A DNA stretch of 64,000 nucleotides from Candidatus Rariloculaceae bacterium (GTDB lineage: Bacteria > Pseudomonadota > Gammaproteobacteria > Steroidobacterales > Rariloculaceae): positions 455,989 to 519,988 of the forward strand of contig OZ250159.1 in assembly GCA_965237785.1 (NCBI GenBank), given 5' to 3'. The notes under the pieces are model-generated. The model did no database searches. It had not been told where the DNA came from and was given only the letters and a program-made list of their open reading frames with translations. Both the position numbers and the translations under genes were made by a program. Positions 25,841-57,678 of the stretch are shown here, piece after piece (position 1 is the first letter of the stretch; each line of letters starts with the position of its first letter).

Positions 25841-26638
25841 TTGCGAATGAGCAAGCACATCCTGCCCGGCTTGGGCGACCTGCTGGTTTCGGAAGTGGAG
25901 CGCAAGCACATCCTGAAGTTCCAGTACGGGCTGAGGGAGATGCCGACCGTCGCGAACCGCACGGTCGACATGCTGGTGAAGATGTTCAACCTGGCCGAAC
26001 TGTGGGAGATGCGTCCTGCGGGACGAAACCCCTGCAAGTCGGTGCGCCGCTACAAGGTGCAACGGCACAAGGAGCGGTTCCTGACGTCGGAGGAACTGGC
26101 GCGGCTCGGGCGTGTACTGGACGTCGCCCCGGCGAAGCGGCTGGCGTCGCGGCATTCGGCGGCGGCGATCCGGCTCCTGATCCTGACCGGGTGCCGGAGA
26201 AACGAGATCATGGGACTGGCCTGGGACGATCTCGACTTCGAGGCGGGCGAGATGCGATTGAGGGACAGCAAGACCGGGGCGCGGATCGTGCCGCTGCCGC
26301 CCGCGGCCGCGGAGGTACTGGCGGACCTCCCGAACGTCGCGGGCAACCCGTGGGTGTTTCCCGGCAGGAAGAAGGGAACCCATCAGGTGAACATCAACGA
26401 TTCCTGGGATCGCATTCGCCGGCGCGCCGGTCTCGATGGCGTGCGGCTGCACGATCTGCGCCACACCTTCGCGTCGAGGGCACTCGCGCTCGGGGAGGGC
26501 TTGGCGATGATTGGCGAACTGCTCGGTCATACGCAGGTCAACACCACGGCCCGCTACGCGCACCTGGCCCGGGAATCCATCCAGGCCTCCACCGCGAAGG
26601 TCGCCGACAGCATTGGCGCGGACATCCTTGCGGAGTAG
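25841..26638 (+). CDS. tyrosine recombinase/integrase, 5'-truncated copy (lacks N-terminal arm-binding domain)
   Basis: Aligns with the downstream integrase from its residue ~125 onward (HILPGLGDLLVSEV... vs RHILDRHLLPALGNLRLGEL...). Catalytic region HDLRHTFASRAL...LGHTQVNTTARYAHL is present. TTG/ATG start with an in-frame TAA just upstream. Confidence 0.8.
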   Translation: MRMSKHILPGLGDLLVSEVERKHILKFQYGLREMPTVANRTVDMLVKMFNLAELWEMRPAGRNPCKSVRRYKVQRHKERFLTSEELARLGRVLDVAPAKRLASRHSAAAIRLLILTGCRRNEIMGLAWDDLDFEAGEMRLRDSKTGARIVPLPPAAAEVLADLPNVAGNPWVFPGRKKGTHQVNINDSWDRIRRRAGLDGVRLHDLRHTFASRALALGEGLAMIGELLGHTQVNTTARYAHLARESIQASTAKVADSIGADILAE

Positions 26639-26642
26639 TGGC

Positions 26643-32566: not shown

Positions 32567-32572
32567 CTGCGC

Positions 32573-35432: not shown

Positions 35433-38400
35433 TCACCAGCGCACCGAGCCCTGCAGCCGCAACGCTGCCTCGGCCACGCCGCGCGTGCCCGTTCGCCGGC
35501 CGAGCTCGAGCCCCGCCTCGAGGTTCGCGCCCGACGTGAGCTTCACGCCCATCCGCAAGGCCCGTTGCCCGGCGGAAGCTTCCGTGCCGAGGAACGGCAC
35601 CCAGAGCGCGCGGCCCCTGCGTCCCTCAAGGCCGTAGCCGAGCTCGGCGTGCAACCGCCGGGCGGCATCCATCCCTGCGCCCCGGGCGATTCCCGAGGCG
35701 TCCTGGCGGCTCCACAGCGCGTTCACGCCGCTTGCGGTGTCGCCCCAGCTCGAACCCGCGTCCATCGCCCAGCCGCGCCCGTCCTCGTTGGGCTGCCACT
35801 TCACCGATCCGCTGAACCCCCATTCCTCGTACGCGGCGTCCTCGTGCGCGACAAGCCCCCGCACGTTGACCTCGACCGACACCCGCCCGGCCGTGTAGGC
35901 CACTCCGCCGCCGAGCTCCACACCGGCGCCCGTCTCGGCGTCCCCGCCGTCGTAGCGCAGCCCCGCCTCGAGCGTCGGGCGCAGCACCGCGCCGTTCGAA
36001 AGCGCCATGGATCCCGAACCTTCAAGCATCAGCCGCACGCGGCTCGACGCGCCCTCGGCGCCCATCAGACCCGTCGCGGCCTCGGACACCGTGTTCGTGA
36101 AGAGCGCGTCGGACACGACCGCGAGCTCCAACCCGCCCCCGCGGCGGGAAAACACGCCCCGCCCGCCGAACGCCGCCAGAGCGGATTCAAGACCCGTCCC
36201 GATCGCGTCGTCGGCGCGCTCGCTCCGAAGAGCGAGATCGCCCACGCCGTAACCGACCGCGCCCCACAGGCTCAACCGCTCGTTGAGCGTGAAGTTCGCG
36301 TACGGGTTGACGCTCGTCAGACGGCTCGTCAGTTCGCCGCCGGCGCCGGCGCTTGCATGGCTGTAGGCGCCCTCGCCGAAACTGTGCGACACCGCCACGC
36401 CCGCCAGCCACCGGCCCCACCGGGCGTCGGCGCCGACGGTGGCCGTGGCCACCTCGCCGTCGATCGAAAGCTTCCCGTCGGCGCCGCTGAACCGCGTCTC
36501 CGCCGCCCGGCCCCAGGCCGACCAGCTTGCAAGCCCGTTCGCGGTCCCCGCCCCGTCGTCCAGCGTTCGCGAGTAATCGAACGAACTGCCCATGAGCAGC
36601 GCCCGCCAGTCCTCGCGCCCCCTCGACAGCAGATCCGCGAACGGCCGGGCCGTGGACAGCAGTCCGGCGGACGACAGTCCCGCCGGCAGCACGCCCGCGG
36701 ACGACAGCCCGGCGGACACCAGATCTTCGAGTCCCGCGCGTGCTGCCGACGGCAGTCCTGCGGACGCCAGTTCTGCGGACGCCAGTCCTGCGTCGTTCGA
36801 TCCTGAACGCGACGCGCCTGAAGACGACAAGCCCGTGGGCGCCGGTCCGCCCATCCGCGGGGCCCCGCCCGCGGACCCGCCCGCCGCAAGCCCGATGCTG
36901 CCGGGCGTCGCCCACCAGCCCATGGATTCGGCCTTGAGCCGGTCCATGCGCTCCCAGGCCGATTCGTCCTCAAGGCGCCTGTCCGGCGCGGCCCGGTCCG
37001 CGGTCTCCTTCGCATTGCCGCCCCGGGCGGCGCTGCGCAACTCGTTCAACAGTTGATCCACGCGCCGTCCGCCCACCGTGAACTGGTTTTCCTCGGGCCG
37101 GCGCGGCCCGCCGGTGAGCCGCTCGCGGATCGCATCGACCGTCTGAACCGACGAGGTGCGACCGAACCGCGCCAGCCACGCCTTCGGCATGGGGTCGGAG
37201 TTGTTGATGGTGCCCGTCGCCTTGCCGTCGGCGATGGTTGCGCCGGAAGGGTTGGAGAGCGTCATCGTCAGGGTCTCCGCGCCCTCGTCGTGGCTGTCGT
37301 CCAGCACCGCGATGGAGACGATCCTTCGCTGCTGCCCGCGGGCGAAGGTGAGCGTGCCGCTGCGCGAGTGGTAGTCCTGGCCCGCGGTCGCGGGATTCGC
37401 GCCGGCGCCGTCCGCGGTCGCGTAGTCCACCGTGACCGTGGTGCTCGGCGCCCGGTTCAGCGTGACCGCGAAGTCGAGCAGCGTCGCGTCGTTCTCCTTC
37501 TCGTCCACCGACGCGTCCGCCACCGAGAGTGCCGGCGGCGGTGGGCCTTCCTCAACGGCTTCCTCCTCTACGGGGTCATCCTCGGCCGGGTCATCCTCGG
37601 CCGCGTCGTCCTCGGCCGGGTCGTCCTCGGCCGGATCATCCTCAGCCGGGTCATCCTCAACCGGGTCGTCCTCGGCCGCGTCACCCTCGGCCGGCTCCCG
37701 GTCCGTGTCGGCTCCGCTCGCGGAGTCGCCCGGAGCCTCATCCTCGCGGTTCAGGATCGTCCCCGTCGCCCGGTCGTCGCCGATTTGCGCGCCCCTGGCC
37801 TCGTAGAGGTGAAAGTAAAACGTCTCGCCGCTGTCCTTGTCCTCATCGTCCACGATCGGCACCTCGACGATTTTCCGCCACTCGCCGGCGGCAAAGGTCA
37901 GCGTGCCCGTGGTCTCCTCGTAGTCCGCTCTCACCGTCGCCGTGCCGGACGACGTGTAGTACCGCACCGTCACCTCCCCGGCGGCCGCCGGCGACAGCCT
38001 CACCGCGAACCGGATCGCCGGGTTCGTCCCTTCCCGGCCCTCGGCGTCCGCCACCGACAACGCCGGCGTCGTCCCCACCGGGTCCGCCACGATCCGGCTG
38101 AACTCCGCCACGTGGGGCACGGAGTGCCATTTTCCCGCGGCCCGCAGGTTGTCCGATTCTTCGTACGACTTCCAGTAGCTGACCGAGACGGTCTCGCCGT
38201 CCGACGGCCCGTCGTACTCCGTCCCCCCGCGTATCACCGGGTTCAACGTGAGCCGCACGATCCGGCAGGCCTGGCCGTTGGACGTGCAGGCGCTCCCATT
38301 GCGCGCCTGCACGATCTCGGTCAGGTTCACGCTGTTCGCGGCCAGGGTGTCTGGAAGACCGGCCGGCGCCGATTCCGAATAATGCACCCCGAACTGCGGC

Positions 38401-41400
38401 GTCAGTTTGTTGTGGCGCGCAACGCCCGTATCGAGGTCGCGGTCGAAGAAGATCCAGACCTTGTCGCCATGGCGCTCGATGCGCTCGACCTCGGGCGCGC
38501 CCCGGTTCGAACCCTGGCCCGTCCCGCCGACGTTGTACACCGTCGTCCACGGCCCCGGGCCGCGCTCGTTCTCCCAACGCACCCGCACGTCGTAGGCCTG
38601 CCCGGCCGCGACGTCGAAGATGACGTCGCTGTCGCGTCCGGTGCGCTTCTGGCCGCGCCAGCCCTCCCTCTCGCCGGGCGATGCCCACGCCTTGCCGGCG
38701 CGCTGCCACTGGATGCGGTAGTCGACGCCCACCGGGTCCAGGTCGAAGTTCACCCGCAGGTCCGGCTGCGCGTTCCCGTTGTAATCGATCGGTTCCACCG
38801 TGACGTGCCCCGGCGCCTCCGGCGGCCCGGTCACCCCGCGCACCGTGAGGGTCAGGCGCTTCGACAGCCCGTTCGACCCCGCGCACATCGCGCCCGCGCC
38901 GGGACACGGCAGCGGCTGGACCCTCACGGTCACGTCTTCCGTGCCCGTCGGCGTCAGCTCCATCCGAATGCGGTGGTACGCCGTGTCGATGAAGCGCACG
39001 GTGGCGCCGGTCACCCGCAGCGCCCCGTTCGGCCCGAGCCACTGGTCCGGGGCCGGGCCACGCGCGCATACCGTGAATGACGAGAGGCTCTGGTACTGCT
39101 CCCAGGTGAGTGGCTGGCACCGCTCAGTCAGCAACACGTAGTCGCCCGCCCGCCGGAACTGCACCGCGAGCTGGAACGGCTCGCCGAAGTGGATGTCCGG
39201 CAGGGGACCGCCCCACCCGGCCACGTCGTCCGCGCCGCCTCTCACCGCCGTGAAATGGGCGTCGATCGAGCCGAAGGAGCCCTCGTCGTCCGTGACCGTA
39301 ACCTCCACGTCGCCCGCCGTCACCCCGTTGTAGTTCGCGCCCCTCACCCGGTGGCTGACCGTGGCGAGGTCGTCCTCGTCGTCCGCGTCATGGTCCGCCG
39401 ACACCGTCACGTCCTGCGGCTCGGCCCAGTTCATGGCCGTGAAGGTCAGCGCAGCCGATACCCTCACTTCGGCGTTGTCCACCACCCGCGGCGTCACCGT
39501 CACCGGTCCCGTGGGCGGCGCCTTCAATACGACCGTGTAGGTCGCCTCGGCGCCCTCGTCGACCGCCAGCGACGTCGCGCTCAGCGTCACGCCCGCGGCG
39601 GTGGCGGTGGCGCCCGAACCGGGTTCCGACCACTCGCTGTCGGTCTCGCCGTTCAGCGCCCGCACCCGCACCTGGTAGCTGGTGTCCGCGGACAGGCCCG
39701 TGATCGGCGCGCTCGTGCCGGTGACGTTCTGCGGGCCGTCCATGAAGTCGTCGCCGGTGCCCGGGCGGTATTGCAGGTCGTAGCCTGCGATGTCCGGGCC
39801 GCCGTTCAGACCCGGTTTCGTCCAGGTCACCTCCAGGCTCGTGGTCGAGCCCGGCGTCGCGCCCACCGACGGCGCCGCCGGCGTCTCCGGCTGCTCGTCC
39901 GCGTCGGTCACGTTGATCGTCACGGCGATGCTTTCGGCGCCGCCGTTGCCGTCGGAGACCGAAACCGTCACCGCGTAGCTGGACTTCGCCTCGAAATTCA
40001 ACGCCGCCTTGGTCCGGAGCTGCCCGGAGGTCGAGACCATGGCGAAGGCCGCGGCGTCCGTCCCGCCCAGGGTGTAGGTCAGCGTGTCGCCCGTGTCCGT
40101 ATCCGCGGCCGCGACACGATCCCCGATATCGGCGCCCGCCGCCGTGTTCTCGGCCACGCTGCGCGTGGCGCTCGCGCCCTCGGTGAAGGTCGGGGCATTG
40201 TTGGCGGGCGACCCGGTGTTGCCGGTTCCCGACGGGGACCACTCGCTGGGGGTCTCGCCGTTCAGCGCCCGGACCTGCACCTGGTACCTGGTGGCCGCGT
40301 TCAGGCCCGTGATCGGCGCGCTCGTGCCGGTGACGTTCTGCGGGCCGTCCATGAAGTCGCCGCTGGTGCCAGGGCGGTATTGCAGGTCGTAGCCGGCGAT
40401 GGCCGGGCCGCCGTTCAGCCCCGGCGCGGTCCAGCTCACCGTCAGGCTGGCGGTGGTTCCGGCGGTGGCGCTGACGTCCGGCGCGGCGGGCCTCGCCGGC
40501 TGCTCGTCCGCGTCGGTCACGTTGATCGTCACGGCGATGCTGTCGGCGCCGCCGTTGCCGTCGGAGACCGAAACCGTCACCGCGTAGCTGGACTTCGCCT
40601 CGAAATTCAGCGCCGCCTTGGTCCGGAGCTGGCCGGAGGTCGAGACCATGGCGAAGGCCGCGGCGTCCGTCCCGCCCAGGGTGTAGGTCAGCGTGTCGCC
40701 CGTGTCCGTATCCGCGGCCGCGACACGATCCCCGATATCGGCGCCCGCCGCCGTGTTCTCGGCGACGCTGCGCGTGGCGCTCGCGCCCTCGGTGAAGGTC
40801 GGGGCATTGTTGGCGGGGTCAACCGTCCCGCTCAAGGGATAGGCCGCGCTGGTCAGTGCCTCGTCGTTGCCCTCGTTATCCTGGAAGCTGACCCGCACCT
40901 TGATCTTCTTGCCCTCGTCGTCCGCCACCAGCGCGTAGGTGTACAAGTCTGTCCCGATGTTCACCGGGTTCGTCCCGTCCGCATTCACCCGGACCCACTG
41001 CAAGGTGTAGTCGTCCGGGAAGGTGTCCGGCAGCCCGTCGGTGTCGGCGATGTTGTCGATCGCCGCGGTCAGCGTCTCCCCGACCCGCGCCGTGCCGGAT
41101 ATCGCCGGCGCCCCGGTGGCGGGGTTGTTGGCCACGCCAACCGTTGCGGTGCCCGACGGGTATGGCTCGCTGGTCACTTCCTCGTCGGCGCCACCCTTGT
41201 CCTGGAAGCTCACCTCCACCTTGATCTTCTTGCCCACGTCGGCCGCCACCAGCGCGTAGGTGTACAAGTCTGTCCCGATGTTCACCGGGTTCGTATCGTC
41301 CGCATTCACCCGGACCCACTGGAAGGTGTAGTCGTCCGGGAAGGTGTCCGGCAGCATGTCGGTGTCGGCGATGTTGCCGATCGCCGCGGTCAGCGTCTCG

Positions 41401-41675
41401 CCGGCCCGCGCCGTCCCGGATATGGCCGGCGCGCCGGTGGCGAAGTTGTTGTCCACGCCAACCGTCCCGCTCGCGGGATAGGCGGCACTGGTCACTTCCT
41501 CGTCGGCGCCGCCCTTGTCCTGGAAGCTCACCTCCACCTTGATCTTCTTGCCCACGTCGGCCGCCACCAGCGCGTAGGTGTACAAGTCTGTCCCGATGTT
41601 CACCGGGTTCGTATCGTCCGCATTCACCCGGACCCACTGGAAGGTGTAGTCGTCCGGGAAGGTGTCCGGCAGCAT
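35433..41675 (-). CDS. giant adhesin, C-terminal segment (Ig-like repeats, cadherin-Fn3 x2, Calx-beta x2, autotransporter beta-barrel)
   Basis: The apparent ATG 41675 is an internal Met of the repeat (…DTDMLPDTF…). Contains NAPTFTEGASATRSVAENTAAGADIG...DTDTGDTLTYTL (cadherin-like), Fn3 (LTVSWTAPGLNGGPAIAGYDLQYR), two Calx-beta blocks, NSDPMPKAWLARFGRT, and a barrel ending LQGSVRW. Confidence 0.88.
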   Translation of the reverse strand: MLPDTFPDDYTFQWVRVNADDTNPVNIGTDLYTYALVAADVGKKIKVEVSFQDKGGADEEVTSAAYPASGTVGVDNNFATGAPAISGTARAGETLTAAIGNIADTDMLPDTFPDDYTFQWVRVNADDTNPVNIGTDLYTYALVAADVGKKIKVEVSFQDKGGADEEVTSEPYPSGTATVGVANNPATGAPAISGTARVGETLTAAIDNIADTDGLPDTFPDDYTLQWVRVNADGTNPVNIGTDLYTYALVADDEGKKIKVRVSFQDNEGNDEALTSAAYPLSGTVDPANNAPTFTEGASATRSVAENTAAGADIGDRVAAADTDTGDTLTYTLGGTDAAAFAMVSTSGQLRTKAALNFEAKSSYAVTVSVSDGNGGADSIAVTINVTDADEQPARPAAPDVSATAGTTASLTVSWTAPGLNGGPAIAGYDLQYRPGTSGDFMDGPQNVTGTSAPITGLNAATRYQVQVRALNGETPSEWSPSGTGNTGSPANNAPTFTEGASATRSVAENTAAGADIGDRVAAADTDTGDTLTYTLGGTDAAAFAMVSTSGQLRTKAALNFEAKSSYAVTVSVSDGNGGAESIAVTINVTDADEQPETPAAPSVGATPGSTTSLEVTWTKPGLNGGPDIAGYDLQYRPGTGDDFMDGPQNVTGTSAPITGLSADTSYQVRVRALNGETDSEWSEPGSGATATAAGVTLSATSLAVDEGAEATYTVVLKAPPTGPVTVTPRVVDNAEVRVSAALTFTAMNWAEPQDVTVSADHDADDEDDLATVSHRVRGANYNGVTAGDVEVTVTDDEGSFGSIDAHFTAVRGGADDVAGWGGPLPDIHFGEPFQLAVQFRRAGDYVLLTERCQPLTWEQYQSLSSFTVCARGPAPDQWLGPNGALRVTGATVRFIDTAYHRIRMELTPTGTEDVTVRVQPLPCPGAGAMCAGSNGLSKRLTLTVRGVTGPPEAPGHVTVEPIDYNGNAQPDLRVNFDLDPVGVDYRIQWQRAGKAWASPGEREGWRGQKRTGRDSDVIFDVAAGQAYDVRVRWENERGPGPWTTVYNVGGTGQGSNRGAPEVERIERHGDKVWIFFDRDLDTGVARHNKLTPQFGVHYSESAPAGLPDTLAANSVNLTEIVQARNGSACTSNGQACRIVRLTLNPVIRGGTEYDGPSDGETVSVSYWKSYEESDNLRAAGKWHSVPHVAEFSRIVADPVGTTPALSVADAEGREGTNPAIRFAVRLSPAAAGEVTVRYYTSSGTATVRADYEETTGTLTFAAGEWRKIVEVPIVDDEDKDSGETFYFHLYEARGAQIGDDRATGTILNREDEAPGDSASGADTDREPAEGDAAEDDPVEDDPAEDDPAEDDPAEDDAAEDDPAEDDPVEEEAVEEGPPPPALSVADASVDEKENDATLLDFAVTLNRAPSTTVTVDYATADGAGANPATAGQDYHSRSGTLTFARGQQRRIVSIAVLDDSHDEGAETLTMTLSNPSGATIADGKATGTINNSDPMPKAWLARFGRTSSVQTVDAIRERLTGGPRRPEENQFTVGGRRVDQLLNELRSAARGGNAKETADRAAPDRRLEDESAWERMDRLKAESMGWWATPGSIGLAAGGSAGGAPRMGGPAPTGLSSSGASRSGSNDAGLASAELASAGLPSAARAGLEDLVSAGLSSAGVLPAGLSSAGLLSTARPFADLLSRGREDWRALLMGSSFDYSRTLDDGAGTANGLASWSAWGRAAETRFSGADGKLSIDGEVATATVGADARWGRWLAGVAVSHSFGEGAYSHASAGAGGELTSRLTSVNPYANFTLNERLSLWGAVGYGVGDLALRSERADDAIGTGLESALAAFGGRGVFSRRGGGLELAVVSDALFTNTVSEAATGLMGAEGASSRVRLMLEGSGSMALSNGAVLRPTLEAGLRYDGGDAETGAGVELGGGVAYTAGRVSVEVNVRGLVAHEDAAYEEWGFSGSVKWQPNEDGRGWAMDAGSSWGDTASGVNALWSRQDASGIARGAGMDAARRLHAELGYGLEGRRGRALWVPFLGTEASAGQRALRMGVKLTSGANLEAGLELGRRTGTRGVAEAALRLQGSVRW
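37566..37695 (-). repeat. 15-nt in-frame tandem repeat encoding an acidic (A/V)EDDP spacer
   Basis: ggccgggtcatcctc / ggccgcgtcgtcctc / ggccgggtcgtcctc / ggccggatcatcctc / agccgggtcatcctc / aaccgggtcgtcctc... It translates as DAAEDDPVEDDPAEDDPAEDDPAEDDAAEDDPAEDDPVEE. Confidence 0.9.
39600..40817 (-). repeat. 609-nt tandem duplication (cadherin-like plus Fn3 pair x2)
   Basis: The sequence gaaaccgtcaccgcgtagctggacttcgcctcgaaattca... at 39961 recurs at 40570 (offset 609). The cadherin halves are near-identical and the Fn3 halves are more diverged. Confidence 0.9.
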
Positions 41676-44600
41676 CGTCGGTGTCGGCGATGTTGCCGAT
41701 CGCCGCGGTCAGCGTCTCGCCGGCCCGCGCCGTCCCGGATATCGCCGGCGCGCCGGTGGCGGGGTTGTTGGCGGCGGCCACCGTTGCGGTGCCCGACGGG
41801 TATGGCTCGCTGGTCACTTCCTCGTCGTTGCCGTCGTCGTCCTGGAAGCTCACCTCCACCTTGATCTTCTTGCCCACGTCGGCCGCGACCAGCGCGTAGG
41901 TGCCGGAGTCTGTCCCGATGTTCACCGGGTTCGTCCCGTCCGCGTCCACCCGGACCCACTGCAAGGTGTAGTCGTCCGGGAAGGTGGCCGGCAGCCCGTC
42001 GGCGTCGGCGATGGTGTCTTTCGCCGCGGTCAGCGTCTCGCCGGCCCGCGCCGTCCCGGATATCGCCGGCGCGCCGGTGGCGGGGTTGTTGGCGGCGGCC
42101 ACCGTTGCGGTGCCCGACGGGTATGGCTCGCTGGTCACTTCCTCGTCGTTGCCGTCGTCGTCCTGGAAGCTGACCTCCACCTTGATCTTCTTGCCCACGT
42201 CGGCCGCGACCAGCGCGTAGGTGCCGGAGTCCGTCCCGATGTTCACCGGGTTCGTCCCGTCCGCGTCCACCCGGACCCACTGCAAGGTGTAGTCGTCCGG
42301 GAAGGTGGCGGGCAGCCCGTCGGCGTCGGCGATGGTGTCTTTCGCCGCGGTCAGCGTCTCGCCGGCCCGCGCCGTCCCGGATATCGCCGGCGCGCCGGTG
42401 GCGGGGTTGTTGGCGGCGGCCACCGTTGCGGTGCCCGACGGGTATGGCTCGCTGGTCACTTCCTCGTCGTTGCCGTCGTCGTCCTGGAAGCTCACCTCCA
42501 CCTTGATCTTCTTGCCCACGTCGGCCGCGACCAGCGCGTAGGTGCCGGAGTCTGTCCCGATGTTCACCGGGTTCGTCCCGTCCGCGTCCACCCGGACCCA
42601 CTGCAAGGTGTAGTCGTCCGGGAAGGTGGCGGGCAGCCCGTCGGCGTCGGCGATGGTGTCTTTCGCCGCGGTCAGCGTCTCGCCGGCCCGCGCCGTCCCG
42701 GATATCGCCGGCGCGCCGGTGGCGGGGTTGTTGGCGACGCCAACCGTTGCGGTGCCCGACGGGTATGGCTCGCTGGTCACTTCCTCGTCGTTGCCGTCGT
42801 CGTCCTGGAAGCTGACCCGCACCTTGATCTTCTTGCCCTCGTCCGCCGCGACCAGCATGTAGGTGCTTGAGTCCGTCCCGATGTCGACCGAGTTCGACTC
42901 GCCGTCCGCGTCCACCCGGACCCACTGCAAGGTGTAGTCGTCCGGGAAGGTGTCCGGCAGCCCGTCGGCGTCGGCGATGGTGTCTTTCGCCGCGGTCAGC
43001 GTCTCGCCGGCCCGCGCCGTCCCGGATATCGCCGGCGCGCCGGTGGCGGGGTTGTTGGCGGCGGCCACCGTTGCGGTGCCCGACGGGTATGGCTCGCTGG
43101 TCACTTCCTCGTCGTTGCCGTCGTCGTCCTGGAAGCTCACCTCCACCTTGATCTTCTTGCCCACGTCGGCCGCGACCAGCGCGTAGGTGCCGGAGTCCGT
43201 CCCGATGTTCACCGGGTTCGTCCCGTCCGCGTCCACCCGGACCCACTGCAAGGTGTAGTCGTCCGGGAAGGTGGCGGGCAGCCCGTCGGCGTCGGCGATG
43301 GTGTCTTTCGCCGCGGTCAGCGTCTCGCCGGCCCGCGCCGTCCCGGATATCGCCGGCGCGCCGGTGGCGGGGTTGTTGGCGGCGGCCACCGTTGCGGTGC
43401 CCGACGGGTATGGCTCGCTGGTCACTTCCTCGTCGTTGCCGTCGTCGTCCTGGAAGCTCACCTCCACCTTGATCTTCTTGCCCACGTCGGCCGCGACCAG
43501 CGCGTAGGTGCCGGAGTCCGTCCCGATGTCGACCGAGTTCGACTCGCCGTCCGCGTCCACCCGGACCCACTGCAAGGTGTAGTCGTCCGGGAAGGTGGCC
43601 GGCAGCCCGTCGGCGTCGGCGATGGTGTCTTTCGCCGCGGTCAGCGTCTCCCCGACCCGCGCCGTGCCGGAAATCGCCGGGACGCCGGTGGCGGGGTTGT
43701 TGGCGACGCCAACCGTTGCGGTGCCCGACGGGTATGGCTCGCTGGTCACTTCCTCGTCGTTGCCGTCGTCGTCCTGGAAGCTGACCTCCACCTTGATCTT
43801 CTTGCCCACGTCGGCCGCCACCAGCGCGTAGGTGTACAAGTCTGTCCCGATGTTCACCGGGTTCGTCCCGTCCGCGTCCACCCGGACCCACTGCAAGGTG
43901 TAGTCGTCCGGGAAGGTGGCCGGCAGCCCGTCGGCGTCGGCGATGGTGTCTTTCGCCGCGGTCAGCGTCTCCCCGACCCGCGCCGTGCCGGAAATCGCCG
44001 GGACGCCGGTGGCGGGGTTGTTGGCGACGCCAACCGTTGCGGTGCCCGACGGGTATGGCTCGCTGGTCACTTCCTCGTCGTTGCCGTCGTCGTCCTGGAA
44101 GCTGACCTCCACCTTGATCTTCTTGCCCACGTCGGCCGCCACCAGCGCGTAGGTGTACAAGTCTGTCCCGATGTTCACCGGGTTCGTCCCGTCCGCGTCC
44201 ACCCGGACCCACTGCAAGGTGTAGTCGTCCGGGAAGGTGGCGGGCAGCCCGTCGGTGTCCTCGATGCTGCCCCGCGCCGCGGTCAGCGTCTCCCCGACCC
44301 GCGCCGTGCCGGAAATCGCCGGGACGCCGGTGGCGGGGTTGTTGGCGGCGGCCACGGCGAGGGAAACCTTCACCCTGTCGCCTTCGTTCCAGGAGAGCCC
44401 GGCGGCGTCGAATGCGAACACAAGCTGGCTGCCGAGGCCGGCGGTGAAGGTGAAGGTTTCGGAGCCGAGGGTGAGGGCGAGCTCCTCGCTGCCCAGCAGC
44501 CCGTCGGCAGGGGTGGTGCCGGAGATGCGGCGTATCTGGAGACTGAGCTGCCCGCCCGTGCCACTGTTGTAGGCGACGTAGGGGACGCCGACGACGGCGG

Positions 44601-47600: not shown

Positions 47601-50600
47601 TGGTGTCTTTCGCCGCGGTCAGCGTCTCGCCGGCCCGCGCCGTCCCGGATATCGCCGGCGCGCCGGTGGCGGGGTTGTTGGCGGCGGCCACCGTTGCGGT
47701 GCCCGACGGGTATGGCTCGCTGGTCACTTCCTCGTCGTTGCCGTCGTCGTCCTGGAAGCTCACCTCCACCTTGATCTTCTTGCCCACGTCGGCCGCGACC
47801 AGCGCGTAGGTGCCGGAGTCCGTCCCGATGTTCACCGGGTTCGTCCCGTCCGCGTCCACCCGGACCCACTGCAAGGTGTAGTCGTCCGGGAAGGTGGCCG
47901 GCAGCCCGTCGGCGTCGGCGATGGTGTCTTTCGCCGCGGTCAGCGTCTCGCCGCGGTCAGCGTCTCGGGAAGGTGGCCCGTGTCTTTCCCGCGCCGTCCC
48001 CGGCCCGCGCCGTGCCGGATATCGCCGGCGCGCCGGTGGCGGGGTTGTTGGCGGCGCCAACCGTTGCGGTGCCCGACGGGTATGGCTCGCTGGTCACTTC
48101 CTCGTCGTTGCCGTCGTCGTCCTGGAAGCTGACCTCCACCTTGATCTTCTTGCCCACGTCCGCCGCGACCAGCGCGTAGGTGCTTGAGTCCGTCCCGATG
48201 TCGACCGAGTTCGACTCGCCGTCCGCGTCCACCCGGACCCACTGCAAGGTGTAGTCGTCCGGGAAGGTGGCGGGCAGCCCGTCGGTGTCGGCGATGTTGT
48301 CTTTCGCCGCGGTCAGCGTCTCGCCGGCCCGCGCCGTCCCGGATATCGCCGGCGCGCCGGTGGCGGGGTTGTTGGCGGCGCCAACCGTTGCGGTGCCCGA
48401 CGGGTATGGCTCGCTGGTCACTTCCTCGTCGTTGCCGTCGTCGTCCTGGAAGCTCACCTCCACCTTGATCTTCTTGCCCACGTCGGCCGCGACCAGCGCG
48501 TAGGTGCCGGAGTCTGTCCCGATGTTCACCGGGTTCGTCCCGTCCGCGTCCACCCGGACCCACTGCAAGGTGTAGTCGTCCGGGAAGGTGGCCGGCAGCC
48601 CGTCGGCGTCGGCGATGGTGTCTTTCGCCGCGGTCAGCGTCTCGCCGGCCCGCGCCGTCCCGGATATCGCCGGCGCGCCGGTGGCGGGGTTGTTGGCGGC
48701 GGCCACGGCGAGGGAAACCTTCACCCTGTCGCCTTCGTTCCAGGAGAGCCCGGCGGCGTCGAATGCGAACACAAGCTGGCTGCCGAGGCCGGCGGTGAAG
48801 GTGAAGGTTTCGGAGCCGAGGGTGAGGGCGAGCTCCTCGCTGCCCAGCAGCCCGTCGGCAGGGGTGGTGCCGGAGATGCGGCGTATCTGGAGACTGAGCT
48901 GCCCGCCCGTGCCACTGTTGTAGGCGACGTAGGGGACGCCGACGACGGCGGTGCCGCGGGTGAAGCTGTCGGGGGAGAGCGAGCCGATGTCGACGGGAGG
49001 TAAATCGCTGTAGCCGTAGAGGGTGCTGAGGTTCCCGACGGTGAGGGTGGCGCACCACAGGACCTCGCAGGCCTCCGCCACTGTTTCCATCCCCGAGGGA
49101 TAGGCGGCGCCGGTCAGTGCCTCGTCGTTGCCCTCGTTATCCTGGAAGCTGACCCGCACCTTGATCTTCTTGCCCTCGTCCGCCGCGACCAGCATGTAGG
49201 TGCTTGAGTCCGTCCCGATGTCGACCGAGTTCGACTCGCCGTCCGCGTCCACCCGGACCCACTGCAAGGTGTAGTCGTCCGGGAAGGTGGCGGGCAGCCC
49301 GTCGGTGTCGGCGATGGTGTCTTTCGCCGCGGTCAGCGTCTCCCCGACCCGCGCCGTCCCGGATATCGCCGGCGCGCCGGTGGCAGGGTTGTTGGCGGCG
49401 GCCACCGTTGCGGTGCCCGACGGGTATGGCTCGCTGGTCACTTCCTCGTCGTTGCCGTCGTCGTCCTGGAAGCTGATCTCCACCTTGATCTTCTTGCCCA
49501 CGTCCGCCGCGACCAGCGCGTAGGTGCTTGAGTCCGTCCCGATGTCGACCGCGTTCGACTCGCCGTCCGCGTCCACCCGGCTCCACTGGAAGGTGTAGTC
49601 GTCCGGGAAGGTGTCCGGCAGCTCGTCGATGTCGGCGATGTTGCCGACCGCCGCGGTCAGCGTCTCGCCGGCCCGCGCCGTCCCGGATATCGCCGGCGCG
49701 CCGGTGGCGGGGTTGTTGGCGACGCCAACCGTTGCGGTGCCCGACGGGTATGGCTCGCTGGTCACTTCCTCGTCGTTGCCGTCGTCGTCCTGGAAGCTCA
49801 CCTCCACCTTGATCTTCTTGCCCACGTCGGCCGCCACCAGCGCGTAGGTGCCGGAGTCTGTCCCGATGTTCACCGGGTTCGTCCCGTCCGCGTCCACCCG
49901 GACCCACTGCAAGGTGTAGTCGTCCGGGAAGGTGGCCGGCAGCCCGTCGGCGTCGGCGATGTTGTCTTTCGCCGCGGTCAGCGTCTCCCCGACCCGCGCC
50001 GTCCCGGATATCGCCGGCGCGCCGGTGGCGGGGCGGTTGGCAATGGCGAGGGAGACCTTCACCGTGTCGCCTTCGTTCCAGGAGAGCCCGGCGGCGTCGA
50101 ATGCGAACACAAGCTGGCTGCCGAGGCCGGCAGTGAAGGTGAAGGTTTCGGAGCCGAGGGTGAGGGCGAGCTCCTCGCTGCCCAGCAGCCCGTCGGCAGG
50201 GGTGGTGCCGGAGATACGGCGTATCTGGAGACTGAGCTGCCCGCCCGTGCCACTGTTGTAGGCGACGTAGGGGACGCCGACGACGGCGGTGCCGCGGGTG
50301 AAGCTGTCGGGGGAGAGCGAGCCGATGTCGACGGGAGGTAAATCGCTGTAGCCGTAGAGGGTGCTGAGGTTTCCGACGGTGAGGGTGGCGCACCACAGGA
50401 CCTCGCAGGCCTCCGCCACTGTTTCCATCCCCGAGGGATAGGCGGCGCCGGTCACTTCCTCGTCGTTGCCCTCGTTATCCTGGAAGCTGACCCGCACCTT
50501 GATCTTCTTGCCCACGTCCGCCGCGACCAGCGTGTAGGTGCTTGAGTCCGTCCCGATGTCGACCGAGTTCGACTCGCCGTCCGCGTCCACCCGGCTCCAC

Positions 50601-51060
50601 TGGAAGGTGTAGTCGTCCGGGAAGTTGGCGGGCAGCCCGTCGGTGTCGGCGATGTTGCCCTGCCCGGCGGTCAGATCTTCGCGCACCTGCGCCGTGCCCG
50701 TGATCGCCGGGGCGCCCGTGGCGGCGTTGTTGGCAGCGGCGACCACGCCCGTGGCCGCGCTGGTGAGCGACTCGGCGTTGCCGTCGTCGTCCTGGAAGCT
50801 GGCCCGGACCTTGATCGTCTTGCCCTCGTCAGCGTCCACCAGCGTGTAGGTGCTTGACGTAGCGCCCGATATATCAGCAGGGTTCGAGCTGCCGTCCGCA
50901 TCGAGCCGGATCCACTGGTAGGTGTAGCTCACGTTGGTAAGCCCGTCCATGTCCATGATGCCGGTGGTGGCCGCGGTGAGTTCCTGGCCTACCTGCGCGG
51001 TGCCGGTGATGGTGGGGGCGCCGGTGGCGTTGGCGCTGTCCACCTCGGTGACGGTTACCG
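40820..51060 (-). repeat. coding tandem array: ~27 contiguous copies of a 321/324-nt unit interspersed with four 378-nt modules
   Basis: The periodic antisense ORFs in the ORF track start 321 or 324 nt apart (41984, 42305, 42626, 42950, 43271, 43595, 43916, 44237; 44936...46550; 47249...48588; 49287...49932). The steps are 699 nt across each inserted module. Many units are near-identical at nucleotide level. Confidence 0.95.
41677..47952 (-). CDS. giant adhesin, central repeat segment (in-frame part of ORF-track ORF 40876..48060)
   Basis: About 18 copies of the ~107/108-aa repeat ANNPATGAPAISGTARAGETLTAAKDTIADADGLPATFPDDYTLQWVRVDADG...GKKIKVEVSFQDDDGNDEEVTSEPYPSGTATV, plus 2 copies of a 126-aa Cys-containing module. 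Both ends of the ORF-track ORF are out-of-frame read-through. Confidence 0.85.
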
Positions 51061-54000
51061 TGGGGTACGGCGCGCCGCCGTAGGTGCCGATTATCGCCAC
51101 GTGGGCGATGGTCGTCGTGCCGTTCTCGGTGTCCGTGTCCGCAGCGGCGTTCACCGTCACGGTCTGGGCCGTGCTCCAGTCGGATGTCGTGAAGGTCAGC
51201 CCGGCCTCCGAGTCATGCGTGATGTCCTCGTCGCCGCCGTCGGCTAGTGCCACCCGCAGTATCACCGTCGCGGTTGGCGCCGTGGCGAACACCACGGTGT
51301 AGCTCGCGCTGCCGCCCTCCGGAACCTTCAGCTCCGTCGGCGTGATCAGCACCCCAGGCGTCTGGTTGATCACCGCCTGGTCCGTCAGCGCCGCCGCGGC
51401 GTTGCCATCCTCGTCCCGCACCGGATTCGACGCCGGCACCCTGTAGCTCACCGTGACGCTCTCGCCCGGCCCGGCCGCCGTCGACAGCATCAGCGTCACC
51501 GCCTGCCCGGCCACGGCCACCGCGCTGCTCGACGCCAGCGCGCGCTCCGCGCCCGCCACCATCACCGTGAACGCCGCCGCGTCCGTCTTCGAGTTCTCGT
51601 CCAACGCCACGTCGTAGGTCAGCGTCAGCACCGCGCCGTTAATCGTCGCGCTCTCAAGCGCCGGCGTCGTGTCCGCCGCGGCAACCGGCGTCGCGGATTG
51701 CTCCGCGCTGGCGACGCCACCGCCCACGTCGTTCACCGCCCGGAGCTGGAAGGTGTGGGCCGTGTCGTTCGGCAAGCCCGTGACGGTGAAGCTGGCTTCG
51801 TTGGCTTCGCCCGGCGCGCTGTCGGCAATCGCCGTCCATGCACCGTAGGCGGCGGTTGTTTTCACCCGGTACTCGTGGCCGGCGATCCCCGACGCGCTCG
51901 GCACGGTCCAGCCCAGGGTCACCGCGCCGTCGCCCGCCGTGGCCGCGAACCCGGCCGGCGCCGCCGGCGCCAGTGCCACCGTCCCGGTGCGCGTGAACAC
52001 GAGCCGCGCGATGCGCTCGCCGGTGAACTTGCCCCTGCCGCGCAGGCTGGCGATGGGCGCCTTCGGGTTCGTGCCGGCGTTGCTCATGTCGAACCCGGTC
52101 CCGTCCTCCGTTCCCGCGTCCCACGGATACAGCTCCACCGTGCGCGACGACAGCCAGTCGCCGGACGAGTCCAGCAGCGACAGCCCGGAGACCCCCACGA
52201 ACCAGTCCGGCGTCGGGGCGATCATCGACGTGAGCGTGATGCGCGGGTGGTCGCTGGTGAAGACGACGCCGGTCTCGGTGCGGTTGCCGGCGATGCCGGG
52301 CGCGTCATAGGTGACCGCCGCAAGCGCATCGGGCTTCCCGGCGTTGACCTCGCCCGCCAGGGTAGCCGTGGTCCCTTCCTCGGCCATGGCCTCCACACCG
52401 GCGCTCGCCGTCTCGCCGGCCTCGAGGAACGCGACCTGGTCGTTGTGGATGCCGCCCACGAAGGTCGTGAAGTGGGCGCCGGGCGGCACCCCGCCCGGCG
52501 TGACGCCGCTGTCCCAGTCCCCTTCGATCCGAATGCTGTAGGTGGCCCGCGACGTGCGCGCCACCGCCGGGTCGTCGTCCGGCGGCGTCAGCGAGTCGTC
52601 CCCGGTGTCGCTTTCATCGGTGACGCTGACGGTCACGGCGTGGGTCGCCGAAGCCCCGCCGTCGGACACCTTCACCGTCACCGAGTGGCTGATCTTGGCC
52701 TCGTGGTCGAGGTGGGCCCTGGTTTGTATCCGGCCGGTGTCCGTGATCGCGAAGTTATCGCCGTCATCGCCTTTCAGGGTGTAGGTCAGGGTGTCGCCGG
52801 CGTCCGGGTCGGTGGCCGTGAACGGGTTGCCGATGTTCGTGTCCGGCGCGGTGTTCTCCGCCACGGACAACGTCGCCGGCAGGCCGGTGTCGAACACCGG
52901 GGGAGCGTTCGGCAGGAGCTCCACGGTCACGAACGCCCCGTCGGCCAGGCCCCGGATCGCCGCGGGCGCGGGGGTCCACCGGTAGTTGTTGGCTACCCCA
53001 TCTTCACCGTCTCTATTGCCTCTGGTCGCGCTGCCCGGGGCGAAGAAATGCGACCCCACCCTCAGCGTCACGCGGCCCAGGCCGGCGGCGGGAAAGTCGC
53101 GGTCCAGGGTCAGGTGGAGCGAGCCACTGCCATCGACAAGATCAGTATCCCATCTGAGGCTCTCGACCGTGTAGGGCGCGCCGTCCAGGTCGAAATCCGT
53201 GTCGCTGAGCCCGCCGTAGGGTGTCGAACACCGTCCAGCCGCGGCGTCGCAGTACCCATGGGGCACGTCTTGATCCCCCACCTGTACAGCCCCCACCGTC
53301 AGCGTCGCGCACCAGATGTGTCCCGCGGTGCAGGCCGGGGGCGGCACCGTCGCGGCGCTGGTCCGCGCCTCTGCGTTGCCCTCGCCGTCCGTGAAGCCCA
53401 CCCTGACCCGGAACCGCTTGCCCGCGTCGGCCGCGACCAGCGTGTAGGTGCGGGCGCTCGCCCCGGAAATCTCCACCCGGTTCGACTCGCCGTCCGCGTC
53501 CACCCGGACCCACTGCAAGGTGTAGTCGTCCGGGAAGGTGTCCGGCAGCCCGTCGGCGTCGGCGATGTTGCCGATCGCCGCGGTCAGCGTCTCCCCGACC
53601 CGCGCCGTGCCGGAAATCGTCGGGACGCCGGTGGCGGGGGTGTTGGTGGACATTGCCGGGAGCGTTGTCAGCCGGACGTTGACCGTGTCGCCGTCGGACC
53701 AGGTCAGACCGCTATTGGCCCAGCGTAGGTCCCGGTTGCCCCTGAGCCGGCTCGCATCGTCGAACGCGAACGCGGCGTCGTCCACATGAAGCGTCCAGCC
53801 GGACGGCGGCTCCTTGTCGAATTCAAGGGACAACTCACCATCGCCCAACACGGCGAGATAGATGATGGTGTACCCAGTGCCGTCATATGTGAAACTGCTC
53901 GGGTTGAGCGACCCCACTCTGCCGGAGGAATAGCCCACGGCTCCTGGCGTTGGTGCTCCCGCCTCCATTGTTGCGGAGTGGATTCCCTGGACCGAGAGCG

Positions 54001-57000
54001 ACGCGACCGCCTTGGACGCGGGATACGCCGCGCTGGTCAGTTCCTCGTCGTTGCCGTCGTCATCCTGGAAGCTCACCCGCACCTTGATCTTCTTGCCCTC
54101 ATCGGCCGCGACCAGCGCGTAGGTGCTCAAGGTCGCCCCGGGGATGTCAACCGCGTTCGAGCCGTCCGAATCCTCCCGAATCCACTGGAAGCTGTAGTCG
54201 CCCGGGAAGTTGACCGGCAGCCCGTCGGCGTCGGCGATGTTGCCGATCGCCGCGGTCAGCGTCTCCCCGACCCGCGCCGTGCCGGAAATCGCCGGCGCGC
54301 CGATGGCGTTGCTGTGGCCCGTCGGCGTCAGACTGCCGTCGACCTTGTGCTCGGATTGCCTGCCGGGGCCAGCGTGGTTGAGGAAGGCGGAAACCTGGTC
54401 GTCGACGGCGCGAATGTATTCGCCGTCGTCAAGCTTGATGGTTCTCGTTTGATTCCCGATCCAGATGCCGTTGTCGTCCATGTCGGCGGCCAGCACCGTG
54501 TAGACGAACACCAGGGCCGTCGTGCCCGAGCCCCTCTCGTAGGCCGCCCGCGTGTCCGTCCCGTCGAGCGAGAACTCGAAATGCGGCCGGCTCGCGCTCA
54601 CCTCCACCTCATCGGTGAAGGTCACCGTGAAACGGATCAGCTCGCCCACCCCGTAGGTGTCGGATTCAGCGGTCGGCGTCGAGGTGACCGCCACCGAGGA
54701 AACCGTAGGGGCGGCGGCGCCAACCCGAAAAATTCCCGACAGGCCGTAAAAACGGCGAAGGTCTGTTTTGGCGGTGGGCAAGGCATCAATTTCGAAGCCT
54801 GCGGAGGCAGGATAGCCCTGATTAACCCGATCTGCACCGAGGTAGTTGCTTCCGCTACTCGCGCCTGATTCCAAACAACCGGTAAATACTCGCGATTCCG
54901 CCCCGCTTACCGGGGCATTCGTCCCGCCGGGATATTTGGGCCTGTTGGAATCCCAATTCCCGTCGTAAAGATCCGCGTAGTTGTCCGCGACCTTCGCCCC
55001 GTTGAGCCAGTAAATGGCGGCTGCCGTATCGGTGCTTCCAGTGTATGTATTCGCGATGGCGCTGGTAGTCTCGGTACAACCCAGTACATTGAAGCCTGCG
55101 GAATAACTTCGAATGTCCGCGTGACCGTCACTGGAAACATCGCCCTGGACCACACTGTTGTAGTCGGCGATAGCGGTATCTTCCGCGTCTTGTCGAGTGG
55201 ACGTGACGATCAGCAGGCGGAAAGCGTCGCCCTCACTCAGTCCCGAAGGAATCAGGCCCCAGTTCGGCGGAACCTCCGCCGGCGGGGGCGGCGGCGGGGG
55301 CGGCGTCAGGCTGCCGTCCACCTTGTGGCCGCCCAGAAGCCCCAACCCAATATGGGTCAGCACGGCATCGGCCGTATTGCTGACCAGGTCCCGGATCGTC
55401 TCCCCGGCGTCCAGCTTGACGGTTCGCGTGTGATCCCTGACCCAGATGCCGTTGTCGTCCATGTCGGCGGCCAGCACCGTGTAGGCGAACACCAGCGCGG
55501 TCGTGCCGTCCCCGCTCTCCAGCGCCGCCTCCTTGTCCACGTCGCTTCCCGACGGACCGAGCGAGAACTCGAAATGCGGGGCGCCCGTCACGCGGACCGG
55601 ACCGTTGAAGGTCACCGTGAAACGGATCGTCTCGCCCACCCCGTAGGTGTCCTCCATCGCCGTGGGCATCGAGCTCACCGCCACCAATGAAAGCGCCGGC
55701 GGCGTGACGTCGAGCTCGAGCGCGACGGCGACGATCTCGCCGTAGCTCCAGCCCAGCCCCCCCGCCGGCCGCGGCCACGCGTAGCAGTCGCTCGTCGTGA
55801 TCGCCGTGGAGGCGTCGAACCGGAAGGTTTTGCCGCTGATGAGCAGAACCAGCGCGTTGCGCACCGCGTCCGGGGGGGTCGCGGAAGCGACAAAGCAGGC
55901 AACGACCGTCTCGGCATCGTAAGGGGTCGGGGCGGTCGCGCCGAACTCGCCGAGCAGGCCAAGCTCGTAGCGCGTGCTGTCGACCTCGAAGTCGGCGCCG
56001 GTTATCGCGCCGATCGTCGGCGAGAGGAGCGCGTTGTATCCGGGGAAGCCATCCCTCTCGCCCACCGTCATGCTGGCGGTGAGCAGCGCCGCGGGATGCG
56101 CGCTCGGCGCCGCGGCCTCGCGCACCAGCGTCACCGTGTAGGCCTCGGTCGTGTTGCCGTCCTCCGCCGTCACCGTCACCTTGACCGTGTTGCGGCCCGT
56201 GTCGAGCGACAGGGCGGCGGTGCCGCGCGTGGCGGCGTCGTCGTCGCCCGCGATCGCCACCGTGGCGGCCTCGTCGTTCTTCGTCGCCGTCACCGTCACC
56301 GAGTCCACCGGGTTCGCCACCCAGGCGCGGTACTCCGTCGTGGCGCTCGCGAACGCCGGGTCGAGCGTCACGCCCGTGCCGAGCGACAGCGCGCTCAGCG
56401 TGGCGTCGGTGGAGGCCGAGGCGCCCGCTACCCGAAAAATTTCAGACAGGCCGTAAAAACGGTAACTGTCTGTACGAGGAAAACTAACATTACTAAATTC
56501 GAATCCTGCGTTGCCAGGATAACCCACGTTAACATCCGCATCTGTTGAACCGAGGTACCCAAGTGCTCTGACCACTCCTGTGTCACCACAACCCGTAAAT
56601 GCCACTGAAGCAAGGCCGATTGTCGGGGCATCCGTCCCGGCGGGATACTTGGGCGCGTTGGAATCCCAACTCCCGTCATACAAATCCGCGTAGTCGTCCG
56701 CGACCTTCGCCCCGTTGAGCCAGTAAATGGGGGCCGCCGTATCGGTGCTTGCCGTGTTTGTATTCGCGCTGGCGCTGGTCGTCTCGGTACAACCCAGCAT
56801 ATTGAATTTTGCGGAATAACCTTGAATGTCCGTGTGACCGTTGCCGGACACGTCGCCCTGGACCACCGTGTTGTAGTGGACGATATCGGTATTCTCAGCG
56901 GTTTGTTGAGTAGACGTGACGATCAGCAGGCGAAAATCGTCGCCCGCGCTCAGTCCCGAAGGAATCAAGCTCCAGTCCGCCGGAACCTCCGTCTGCGTCT

Positions 57001-57655
57001 GCGCCGGCGGCGGGGCGGTGTCGTCGTTGACGCGGATTTTCAGCAGGTGACCGTTCGTAACCCAAGCGTTATTCGACCCCCTCGCACGCCACAGCCGGTC
57101 GTCGTGAATACTCCAGCCCTCGGCGGATGTATCATCCTCCGCATCCGACTGCGTGCGCTGCACGAGTATTTGAATGTTCCCGCTGTAGCTCAAATGCACG
57201 AAGTAGTCCGTGCTTGCCGACAGCGTCGTATTCGGCAGCGCGCTGAATGTCCCCACGCCCTCCTCCGACAGACTCGCCGGATTGTTCAACGTGGCGATAC
57301 TGCTGCCCGGGATATCGCTGTCGTTCTCATCCGCGGTCCAAAGTGTCGCCGTCAGGGATTGAAGCGCATCGTCACTGGCAGAAAAAAACTCGACTTCGAT
57401 CGACCCCAGGGTGTACCCACCCGGTGTTGGTCCGGTCTCAAAGCCCATGGCCATTTCGTTGATCGCCAGTACTATAGTGCTTGAGTTATCCTGCCCGATG
57501 TTGCTGACCAGTTCGGCGGCCTGGGCGGACGCGGGGATGACCAGTAACGCGCCGAACGCGAGCCTGAAGAAGGCGCCCGAAGGGCGAAGCAGCCGCGGGG
57601 CCCTCACACACGTAATTCCTGACAGTCTGCGCCCGCCGTCCCGCTCGCCGGCCAT
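48002..57655 (-). CDS. giant adhesin, N-terminal segment (ORF-track ORF 47957..58069, true start ~57655)
   Basis: ATG 57655 gives MAGERDGG...FFRLAFGALLVIPASAQA|AE. The ORF-track N-terminus 57656-58069 is antisense to the upstream barrel. Domains: N-terminal domain, duplicated lectin-like modules, cadherin-like beta-sandwich, cadherin, Spondin_N-like, Fn3, Ig-like repeats. Confidence 0.85.
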
Positions 57656-57678
57656 CAACTTGAGAATCGGCCCGGTAT

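Follow-up and report, generated by a model that had tools for sequence, protein, structure and literature searches.

A disrupted, repeat-inflated giant adhesin gene with a predicted autotransporter-like barrel in a Candidatus Rariloculaceae bacterium

We analyzed a stretch of 64,000 nucleotides (nt) from a Candidatus Rariloculaceae bacterium (assembly GCA_965237785.1, contig OZ250159.1, positions 455,989 to 519,988 of the forward strand; hereafter the window), which carries a very large, disrupted adhesin gene on its minus strand. This gene, referred to as gene 2, is the middle one of three tandem paralogous giant surface-adhesin genes. It consists of three minus-strand open reading frames (ORFs) that overlap end to end (47957..58069, 40876..48060, and 35433..41675); an initial annotation of this DNA had given the same three sets of coordinates and the same strand, and all were confirmed. 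The features of gene 2, in the direction of transcription after the first line, are as follows (Ig, immunoglobulin).

35433-57655, minus strand: the whole disrupted adhesin gene (gene 2), reconstructed by deleting 50 nt
57518-57655, minus strand: start region and Sec-type signal peptide (...FFRLAFGALLVIPASAQA, followed by AE), by sequence inspection; the peptide is conserved in the ortholog at locus L021 (see below)
57026-57505, minus strand: choice-of-anchor R domain (NF041539; NCBIfam, E = 8e-21, residues 51-210)
56117-56368, minus strand: cadherin-like beta-sandwich domain (PF12733; Pfam)
52040-52546, minus strand: Spondin_N domain (PF06468; Pfam)
40800-51043, minus strand: main tandem array, with 27 of the 29 Ig-like modules and four of the five 'WCATLTVG' modules
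47997-49991, minus strand: higher-order repeat block A, 98.3% identical to block B
45959-47953, minus strand: higher-order repeat block B
47954-48002, minus strand: junction 1, a 49-nt insertion of scrambled repeat-unit pieces, unique in the window
47931-47967, minus strand: perfect tandem duplication of 17 nt (2.2 copies) that makes up the 3' part of the insertion at junction 1
47957-47959, minus strand: premature stop closing piece 1 (3,232 residues from the ATG at 57655)
41676-41676, minus strand: junction 2, one inserted G (GAC-G-ATG versus GAC-ATG in the next unit)
40876-40878, minus strand: premature stop closing piece 2
37200-40799, minus strand: post-array region with cadherin, fn3, cadherin, fn3, more beta-rich domains, and two Calx-beta domains (Pfam)
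37573-37694, minus strand: 15-nt tandem repeat in eight copies; it encodes an acidic (PAEDD)n linker that joins the two Calx-beta domains
37113-37193, minus strand: conserved 'DPMPKAWLARFGRT...' segment, a predicted long helix that opens the conserved C-terminal unit across the family
36594-36650, minus strand: predicted helix directly before the barrel, linker-like (both AlphaFold2 models)
35436-36527, minus strand: predicted outer-membrane beta-barrel of 18 long strands (AlphaFold2, Foldseek, and profile matches in relatives)

Translation of all frames showed that the module ANNPATGAPAISGTARAGETLTAAKD.IAD.DGLPATFPDDYTLQWVRVDADG...KKIKVEVSFQDDDGNDEEVTSEPYPSGTATV passes from frame to frame at both ORF overlaps, and a motif map combined with this translation placed the reading frame at the junction units in the order 0, 1, 2. 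The initial annotation had held that the same protein repeat crosses both junctions and that insertions of 49 nt and 1 nt explain the frame changes. Indeed, a 321/324-nt (107/108-residue) unit, 'ANNPATGAPAISGTARAGETLTAA...', continues through each junction, and alignment of the units yields exactly those extra bases. The accompanying arithmetic (22,223 - 50 = 22,173 = 3 x 7,391) holds as well: when the 49 nt and the single G are deleted, 22,173 nt or 7,391 codons remain, free of internal stops, and the sole stop is the terminal one, giving a product of 7,390 residues. In the assembled DNA, the frames of pieces 2 and 3 are open for 2,394 and 2,080 codons. Taken together, the sequence supports the view that the three ORFs are fragments of one ancestral gene of ~7,390 codons.

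The two insertions differ in kind. When aligned to its neighbors, the unit starting at position 48037 measures 370 nt, i.e., 321 + 49, and the 49 nt form a non-collinear mosaic of unit fragments located exactly at the seam of the ~2.0-kb blocks A and B. The unit at junction 2 is 319 nt long, a 318-nt variant plus one G that lies outside any homopolymer run; the homologous unit of a related metagenome contig, L001, does not have the extra G. Neither junction falls in a homopolymer or a short simple-sequence tract of the type at which slipped-strand phase variation occurs. Insertion of a mobile element at junction 1 was considered and rejected, since the 49 nt are pieces of the repeat unit itself. 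Exact-sequence searches and JGI metagenome scans, in which the unique junction-1 sequence and the post-array protein were used, revealed no independent copy of the lesions.

A hidden Markov model derived from the repeat unit identified 29 Ig-like modules of 107/108 residues (AIR9-A9 / SCAB-Ig type) in the reconstructed protein, and interspersed among them is a second module of 125 residues ('WCATLTVG'), present five times. In the motif map, units are spaced at 321 or 324 nt, with the exceptions of one 370-nt and one 319-nt interval. At the DNA level the array copies are 96-100% identical, with the longest exact repeats reaching 600-700 nt, and Tandem Repeats Finder reported 5.9 copies at 96% identity. 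Blocks A and B are distinguished by 33 positions and share runs of up to 600-700 nt without a mismatch, while block 42419-45640 matches 44726-47953 at 97.1% identity. Judged by its copies, the array DNA of gene 2 is very young.

The closest genome is a metagenome-assembled genome (MAG) of Candidatus Foliamicus, whose locus L021 (OZ250178.1) is collinear with window positions 63678-53351 at 94-95% nucleotide identity. The gene-2 ortholog at this locus has the same signal peptide, and its frame stays unbroken over at least 3,324 codons, as far as the retrieved DNA extends; in the gene-1 ortholog, at least 3,732 codons are open. The architecture of the gene-2 ortholog diverges from that of the window after residue ~1186, and by that point it is passing into the post-array domains. 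Its first 3,324 residues contain ~5 Ig-like units versus 29 in the window. The metagenome contig L001 is ~93% identical to the window and has ~3 Ig units between the Spondin region and the post-array region, a number that may be collapsed (4x coverage, fragmented genes). Given ~5 units in the Foliamicus ortholog and ~3 in L001, the ~10-kb array is specific to the window lineage and expanded recently.

In L001 to L003 (ENA ERZ25766727, 2-4x coverage, 83-93% identity), adhesin genes are split into many short ORFs, probably through low-coverage consensus errors. Such splitting also explains why most barrel homologs in the databases look like 'stand-alone' proteins of 380-700 residues. A protein search with the N-terminal 800 residues returned relatives with no more than 64% identity over part of the query, and the lengths listed, all below 1,400 residues, are uninformative on full-length orthologs.

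Inspection of the N terminus revealed a Sec signal peptide (...RLLRPSGAFFRLAFGALLVIPASAQA, followed by AE) with an AGGA-GTG start context, and bore out the earlier statement that only the first ORF carries such a peptide (...LVIPASAQA, followed by AE). The GTG at 57607, preceded by AGGA at ~57618-57621, is a more plausible start than the ATG at 57655 and would give a signal peptide of 30 residues that ends in ASAQA before AE. In the N-terminal region, ~830 nt (56426-57256, minus strand) are without a collinear counterpart in the Foliamicus ortholog; this segment holds an internally duplicated domain, and 'EVPADWSLIPSGLS...' occurs twice in the protein. Besides the domains listed above, Pfam and NCBIfam detected SWM-type domains and many modules of the AIR9-A9 / SCAB-Ig type in the reconstructed protein. 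The best domain matches have E values of 1e-35 to 1e-70 and are thus not due to chance. The passenger of gene 2 is not a beta-helix; Ig-like, cadherin, fn3, and Calx-beta sandwiches are strung together in it. There is no RTX-type family among the Pfam matches of the protein, which ends in a barrel instead.

The barrel occupies the last ~360 residues. As the initial annotation had stated, it is confined to the last ORF and ends in ...LQGSVRW, and structure models predict a beta-barrel there. The terminal sequence is an aromatic beta-signal, with the final W or F conserved across the family. PF03797 was matched by neither the last 699 nor the last 420 residues at E <= 1, and no NCBIfam barrel model matched the C terminus even at E <= 1. 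A sequence search of the PDB with the barrel, either as a single sequence or as a 45-member family profile, gave no meaningful match. Among the 45 homologs, four match PF03797 (best E = 1.7e-12) and 12 match the generic OMP_b-brl; in the former, positions 2-207 of the 255 in PF03797 map to residues ~57-258 of the 420-residue query. A canonical 12-strand domain would close near the conserved SGSVKW (residues 295-300), beyond which ~120 more conserved residues follow, ending in QGSVRW.

AlphaFold2, supplied with the family alignment, predicted a helix followed by 18 long strands (mean predicted local distance difference test [pLDDT] 81, predicted TM-score [pTM] 0.69), and the last six predicted strands have pLDDT values of ~81-93. 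A second model of 589 residues contains the same 18 strands and adds a confident long helix over 'PMPKAWLARFGRT...' and a disordered low-complexity linker between that helix and the barrel. When the model was compared with the PDB by Foldseek, the beta-domains of BrkA (3qq2) and NalP (1uyn) ranked first (E = 1e-5, 17-18% identity), with TM-scores of ~0.4-0.5 at 7-13 A root-mean-square deviation (0.51-0.53 at 7 A when normalized to BrkA); the next matches were barrels of 22 to 26 strands, aligned over most of the query. In a mean-field direct-coupling analysis of 309 barrel sequences (effective number 160), even adjacent hairpins were only weakly above background, so that the analysis had no power, and there was no signal for closure between strands 1 and 18 or between strands 1 and 12. 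We take the C-terminal domain to be an outer-membrane barrel homologous to autotransporter beta-domains, probably with more than 12 strands. The assignment to type Va made in the initial annotation stands in part: the signal peptide and a C-terminal barrel nearest to the BrkA and NalP beta-domains agree with it, while the lack of a PF03797 or NCBIfam match and the 18 predicted strands do not. The barrel is autotransporter-like, but not demonstrably type Va.

The 'NSDPMPKAWLARFGRT...' motif follows the last Calx-beta domain (37113-37193, minus strand) and is also found in P0056, P0106, and P0320 and in genes 1 and 3; between it and the barrel lies a low-complexity linker of 150 residues (Gly/Ser/Ala/Pro). 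The motif might serve as a plug, an autochaperone, or a periplasmic handle. A literature search on an 18-strand autotransporter and on the candidate taxa returned nothing relevant.

The barrel profile was run against 1.84 billion representative sequences. At E <= 1e-3 there were 9,888 matching proteins, of which 5,743 reached E <= 1e-30, and in 150 of the 150 matches listed the barrel is at the extreme C terminus. Total lengths among the matches listed reach 7,841, 6,709, 5,075, 4,592, and 4,386 residues; the intact 7,841-residue member combines SWM-like, Calx-beta, fn3, and Ig-like repeats with the same linker motif and the barrel. The initial annotation had regarded gene 2 as far beyond typical autotransporter sizes. 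A size far beyond what is known is not supported, given intact members of the same family with 7,841, 6,709, and 5,075 residues and BigE, a 10,429-residue autotransporter produced by internal replication (Celik et al., 2012, PMC3419190). Because of BigE and the intact 7,841-residue member, the size of gene 2 is above typical but not unprecedented.

The barrel domain is present in species-representative MAGs of at least eight phyla. Their labels are Gammaproteobacteria (Ca. Foliamicus, Ca. Rariloculus, Azotimanducaceae, and others), Alphaproteobacteria, Binatia, Nitrospirales, Nitrospinota, Latescibacterota, Tectimicrobiota, Thermodesulfobacteriota, and Longimicrobiales. In these species-representative genomes the barrel always terminates a large ORF of 450 to >3,700 codons, and at eight of the loci with a full 10-kb upstream flank the ORF is still open where the flank ends. 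A closed Ca. Rariloculus chromosome encodes an intact family member of ~3,590 residues with a signal peptide. Most of the 45 barrel homologs have no PF03797 match, and the one named database match is annotated as 'hypothetical protein'. Many of the barrel-bearing MAGs have names that seem to resemble those of sponge-metagenome bins, and from the names of its relatives we infer a sponge origin for the window. Frameshifted family members were also sought in related genomes, but spurious open frames at 70% GC and tandem paralogs confounded this screen, and its outcome was set aside.

We tentatively propose that the C-terminal unit may represent a large class of unannotated, type V-like translocators specialized for multi-thousand-residue beta-sandwich passengers, spread horizontally in host-associated (probably sponge) bacteria of at least eight phyla. 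Members of such a class might be recognized by a 'DPxPxAWLARFGRT' helix, a low-complexity linker, a short helix, and an 18-strand barrel made of a 12-strand core and a conserved six-strand extension, a design that we consider conceivable rather than probable. If true, the wider barrel would be an answer to the question of how multi-thousand-residue passengers get out.

Gene 2 is flanked by its two paralogs.

57679-64000, minus strand: upstream tandem paralog (gene 1) with cadherin, fn3, and Calx-beta domains, the same barrel at its C terminus (69% identity), and a frame that is open as far as the window edge
29393-35338, minus strand: downstream tandem paralog (gene 3), which has a signal peptide of its own, the same barrel, and an in-frame TAG at 32573-32575

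Gene 1 appears intact within the window. Gene 3 is one frame broken by a single TAG. The affected codon, for which homologs have E, V, R, Q, or A, belongs to a conserved domain and is in unique DNA. Recoding of this TAG was rejected, since TAG terminates many ordinary genes in the window. A tyrosine integrase gene (Arm-DNA-bind_3 and Phage_integrase; 26511..27842, plus strand) adjoins the adhesin cluster, and GC content climbs from ~0.6 to ~0.7 near 26 kb, at the cluster. The integrase and the GC step suggest that the cluster was acquired horizontally as an island; no tRNA gene turned up in the 64-kb window. L001 and L002 likewise have integrases beside the barrel gene. Elsewhere in the window, three genes with overlapping stops and starts form a candidate restriction or defense operon (10223-17753, plus strand) encoding an N6/N4 DNA methylase (922 residues), an AAA_21 / AbiEii-like ATPase (547 residues), and a ResIII helicase-like protein (1,041 residues). 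The sulfatase, lactate permease, gamma-glutamyltranspeptidase, and aldehyde dehydrogenase of the window give essentially full-length profile matches.

What is the state of gene 2? We lean toward the view that it is really inactivated and is most likely a very young pseudogene. As in a pseudogene, its frame is interrupted twice relative to a continuous ortholog and to other family members. By homology, the intact protein would be exported through Sec by means of its N-terminal signal peptide, and its C-terminal barrel, preceded by a helix as in autotransporters, would be inserted by the machinery for beta-barrel assembly through the terminal aromatic residue and so be anchored in the outer membrane. 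The passenger would form a long rod of ~60 beta-sandwich domains (the 29 Ig-like modules plus cadherin, fn3, Calx-beta, and Spondin_N domains) that would hold the choice-of-anchor-R head far from the cell. The Ig-like array has grown recently through tandem duplications of 0.3 to 3 kb, and the 49-nt lesion looks like the scar of a microhomology-mediated template-switching duplication, because it is a mosaic that includes a 17-nt duplication and lies at the seam of blocks A and B. As assembled, piece 1 (3,232 residues) would reach the periplasm unanchored; pieces 2 and 3 would have neither a start context nor a signal peptide, and the anchor would be present in the last piece alone. With signal peptide and anchor split in this way, a functional adhesin would not be made from this copy. 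The question raised in the initial annotation, namely how such a passenger could cross a 12-strand barrel, therefore loses its footing: its premise found no backing in our tests, and the gene as assembled cannot yield the full-length protein.

Several points weigh against inactivation, and most of them fit an alternative in which the gene is intact, with ~7,390 codons or another repeat number, and the insertions arose in assembly or consensus calling, when near-identical units or strains were collapsed or polished. We consider this unlikely, though clearly the most serious of the alternatives. Both insertions are read from the assembled consensus. They fall within 10 kb of array units that are 96-100% identical and contain exact repeats as long as 600-700 nt, where a correct consensus is hardest to obtain. 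The non-collinear 49-nt patchwork, situated exactly at the seam of two near-identical 2-kb blocks, could be a polishing artifact of strain heterogeneity in repeat number, and such heterogeneity within the population is plausible given how strongly copy number differs among relatives. Downstream of the lesions the frames are fully open (2,394 and 2,080 codons); the lack of further stops or indels in the 4,470 codons past junction 1 fits an error equally well as a recent lesion. The nearest relatives, L001 to L003, come from contigs of 2-4x coverage and are unfit to arbitrate, and surface display of the passenger is itself presumed from homology. In contrast, the single G at junction 2 is outside a homopolymer, and the 33 differences between blocks A and B indicate that these are genuine separate copies and not one sequence doubled by the assembler. 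The remainder of the window has no broken genes apart from the TAG of the neighboring paralog, and its ordinary genes are full length, which speaks against an assembly riddled with indels throughout. The gene 3 nonsense substitution in unique DNA is itself an unlikely type of consensus error; hence decay in the cluster looks real.

A second alternative accepts the lesions as real and takes them for a reversible OFF state, in which in-register recombination would delete the faulty units and restore the adhesin with a shorter stalk in sub-populations. The numbers allow this, since removal of both odd units leaves an open frame (22,223 - 370 - 319 = 21,534 = 3 x 7,178), and the units that flank each lesion are near-identical. 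Recombination-driven change in repeat number is moreover an accepted mechanism for Periscope-type surface proteins (PMC9704523), and copy number varies among the relatives of gene 2. Yet such a switch would require two independent contractions, neither site is a simple-sequence tract as in classical phase variation, there is no evidence of mixed alleles, and nothing points to selected rather than accidental lesions. We regard a switch as improbable. That the locus is functional as assembled, as three separate genes or through frame shifting by the ribosome or RNA polymerase at the junctions, has only the three long open frames (thousands of codons) in its favor and is extremely improbable, as ORFs 2 and 3 start mid-repeat with no signal peptide or independent start context, 49 nt would have to be skipped at junction 1, there is no slippery motif at either junction and no Rfam element in the window, which speaks against programmed frameshifting, and the Foliamicus ortholog is one continuous frame.

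We conclude that gene 2 is best described as a broken, recently repeat-inflated member of a large uncharacterized family of autotransporter-like adhesins. By itself, the frameshifted gene carries little weight, being either a young pseudogene or a consensus error, with a size for which there are precedents. It does provide a clean example of a general effect: runaway tandem amplification (~5 to 29 modules within ~5% divergence) makes a surface protein longer and at the same time leaves it open to inactivation. Of more interest is the divergent anchor, which may be an 18-strand barrel, together with its spread across phyla. What could matter is this anchor family of ~10,000 representative sequences, whose gene 2 copy is missed by Pfam and NCBIfam and which always combines huge Ig, cadherin, and fn3 passengers with a predicted barrel larger than the canonical 12 strands. 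If the larger barrel is true, the type V secretion repertoire would be widened, and a molecular handle would be gained on how uncultured symbionts attach to their hosts.

Among known systems, the gene 2 protein resembles the type Va autotransporters (BrkA, NalP, EspP, and BigE, the largest one predicted), with which it shares a Sec signal, a very large passenger, a helix, and a C-terminal barrel that ends in an aromatic residue; a few relatives of its barrel also pass PF03797. As in BigE, giant size was reached by internal repetition (PMC3419190). Unlike type Va proteins, it has no PF03797 or NCBIfam match and no sequence match to solved autotransporters, 18 strands are predicted instead of 12, with a conserved extension of ~120 residues past SGSVKW, and its passenger is a sandwich chain rather than a beta-helix.

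In its stalk, gene 2 is similar to Periscope proteins, being a single chain of near-identical Ig-like repeats whose number varies among close relatives (~3 in L001, ~5 in L021, and 29 in the window), with recombination between repeats as the expected driver (PMC9704523); it departs from this comparison in that its array is frameshifted. Inverse autotransporters (type Ve) have the opposite polarity, since in gene 2 the barrel is C-terminal and the head, with signal peptide and choice-of-anchor R domain, is N-terminal.

Giant RTX adhesins of type I secretion systems (LapA, SiiE, and MpIBP) are attachment proteins whose rods, several thousand residues long, are built of Ca-binding Ig-like, cadherin, and Calx-beta repeats. 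The gene 2 rod, built of Ig-like, cadherin, and Calx-beta domains, is of the same kind, but no C-terminal RTX or type I secretion signal was detected in it, and it has a barrel and a cleavable Sec signal peptide instead. Finally, PMC10947273, citing Robbins et al. (2021), reports enrichment of attachment proteins of the cadherin and fn3 types in sponge symbionts, as well as their lateral transfer between these symbionts. The domain repertoire of gene 2 is the same as in these proteins; the reports describe domains and not the anchor or the architecture seen in gene 2.

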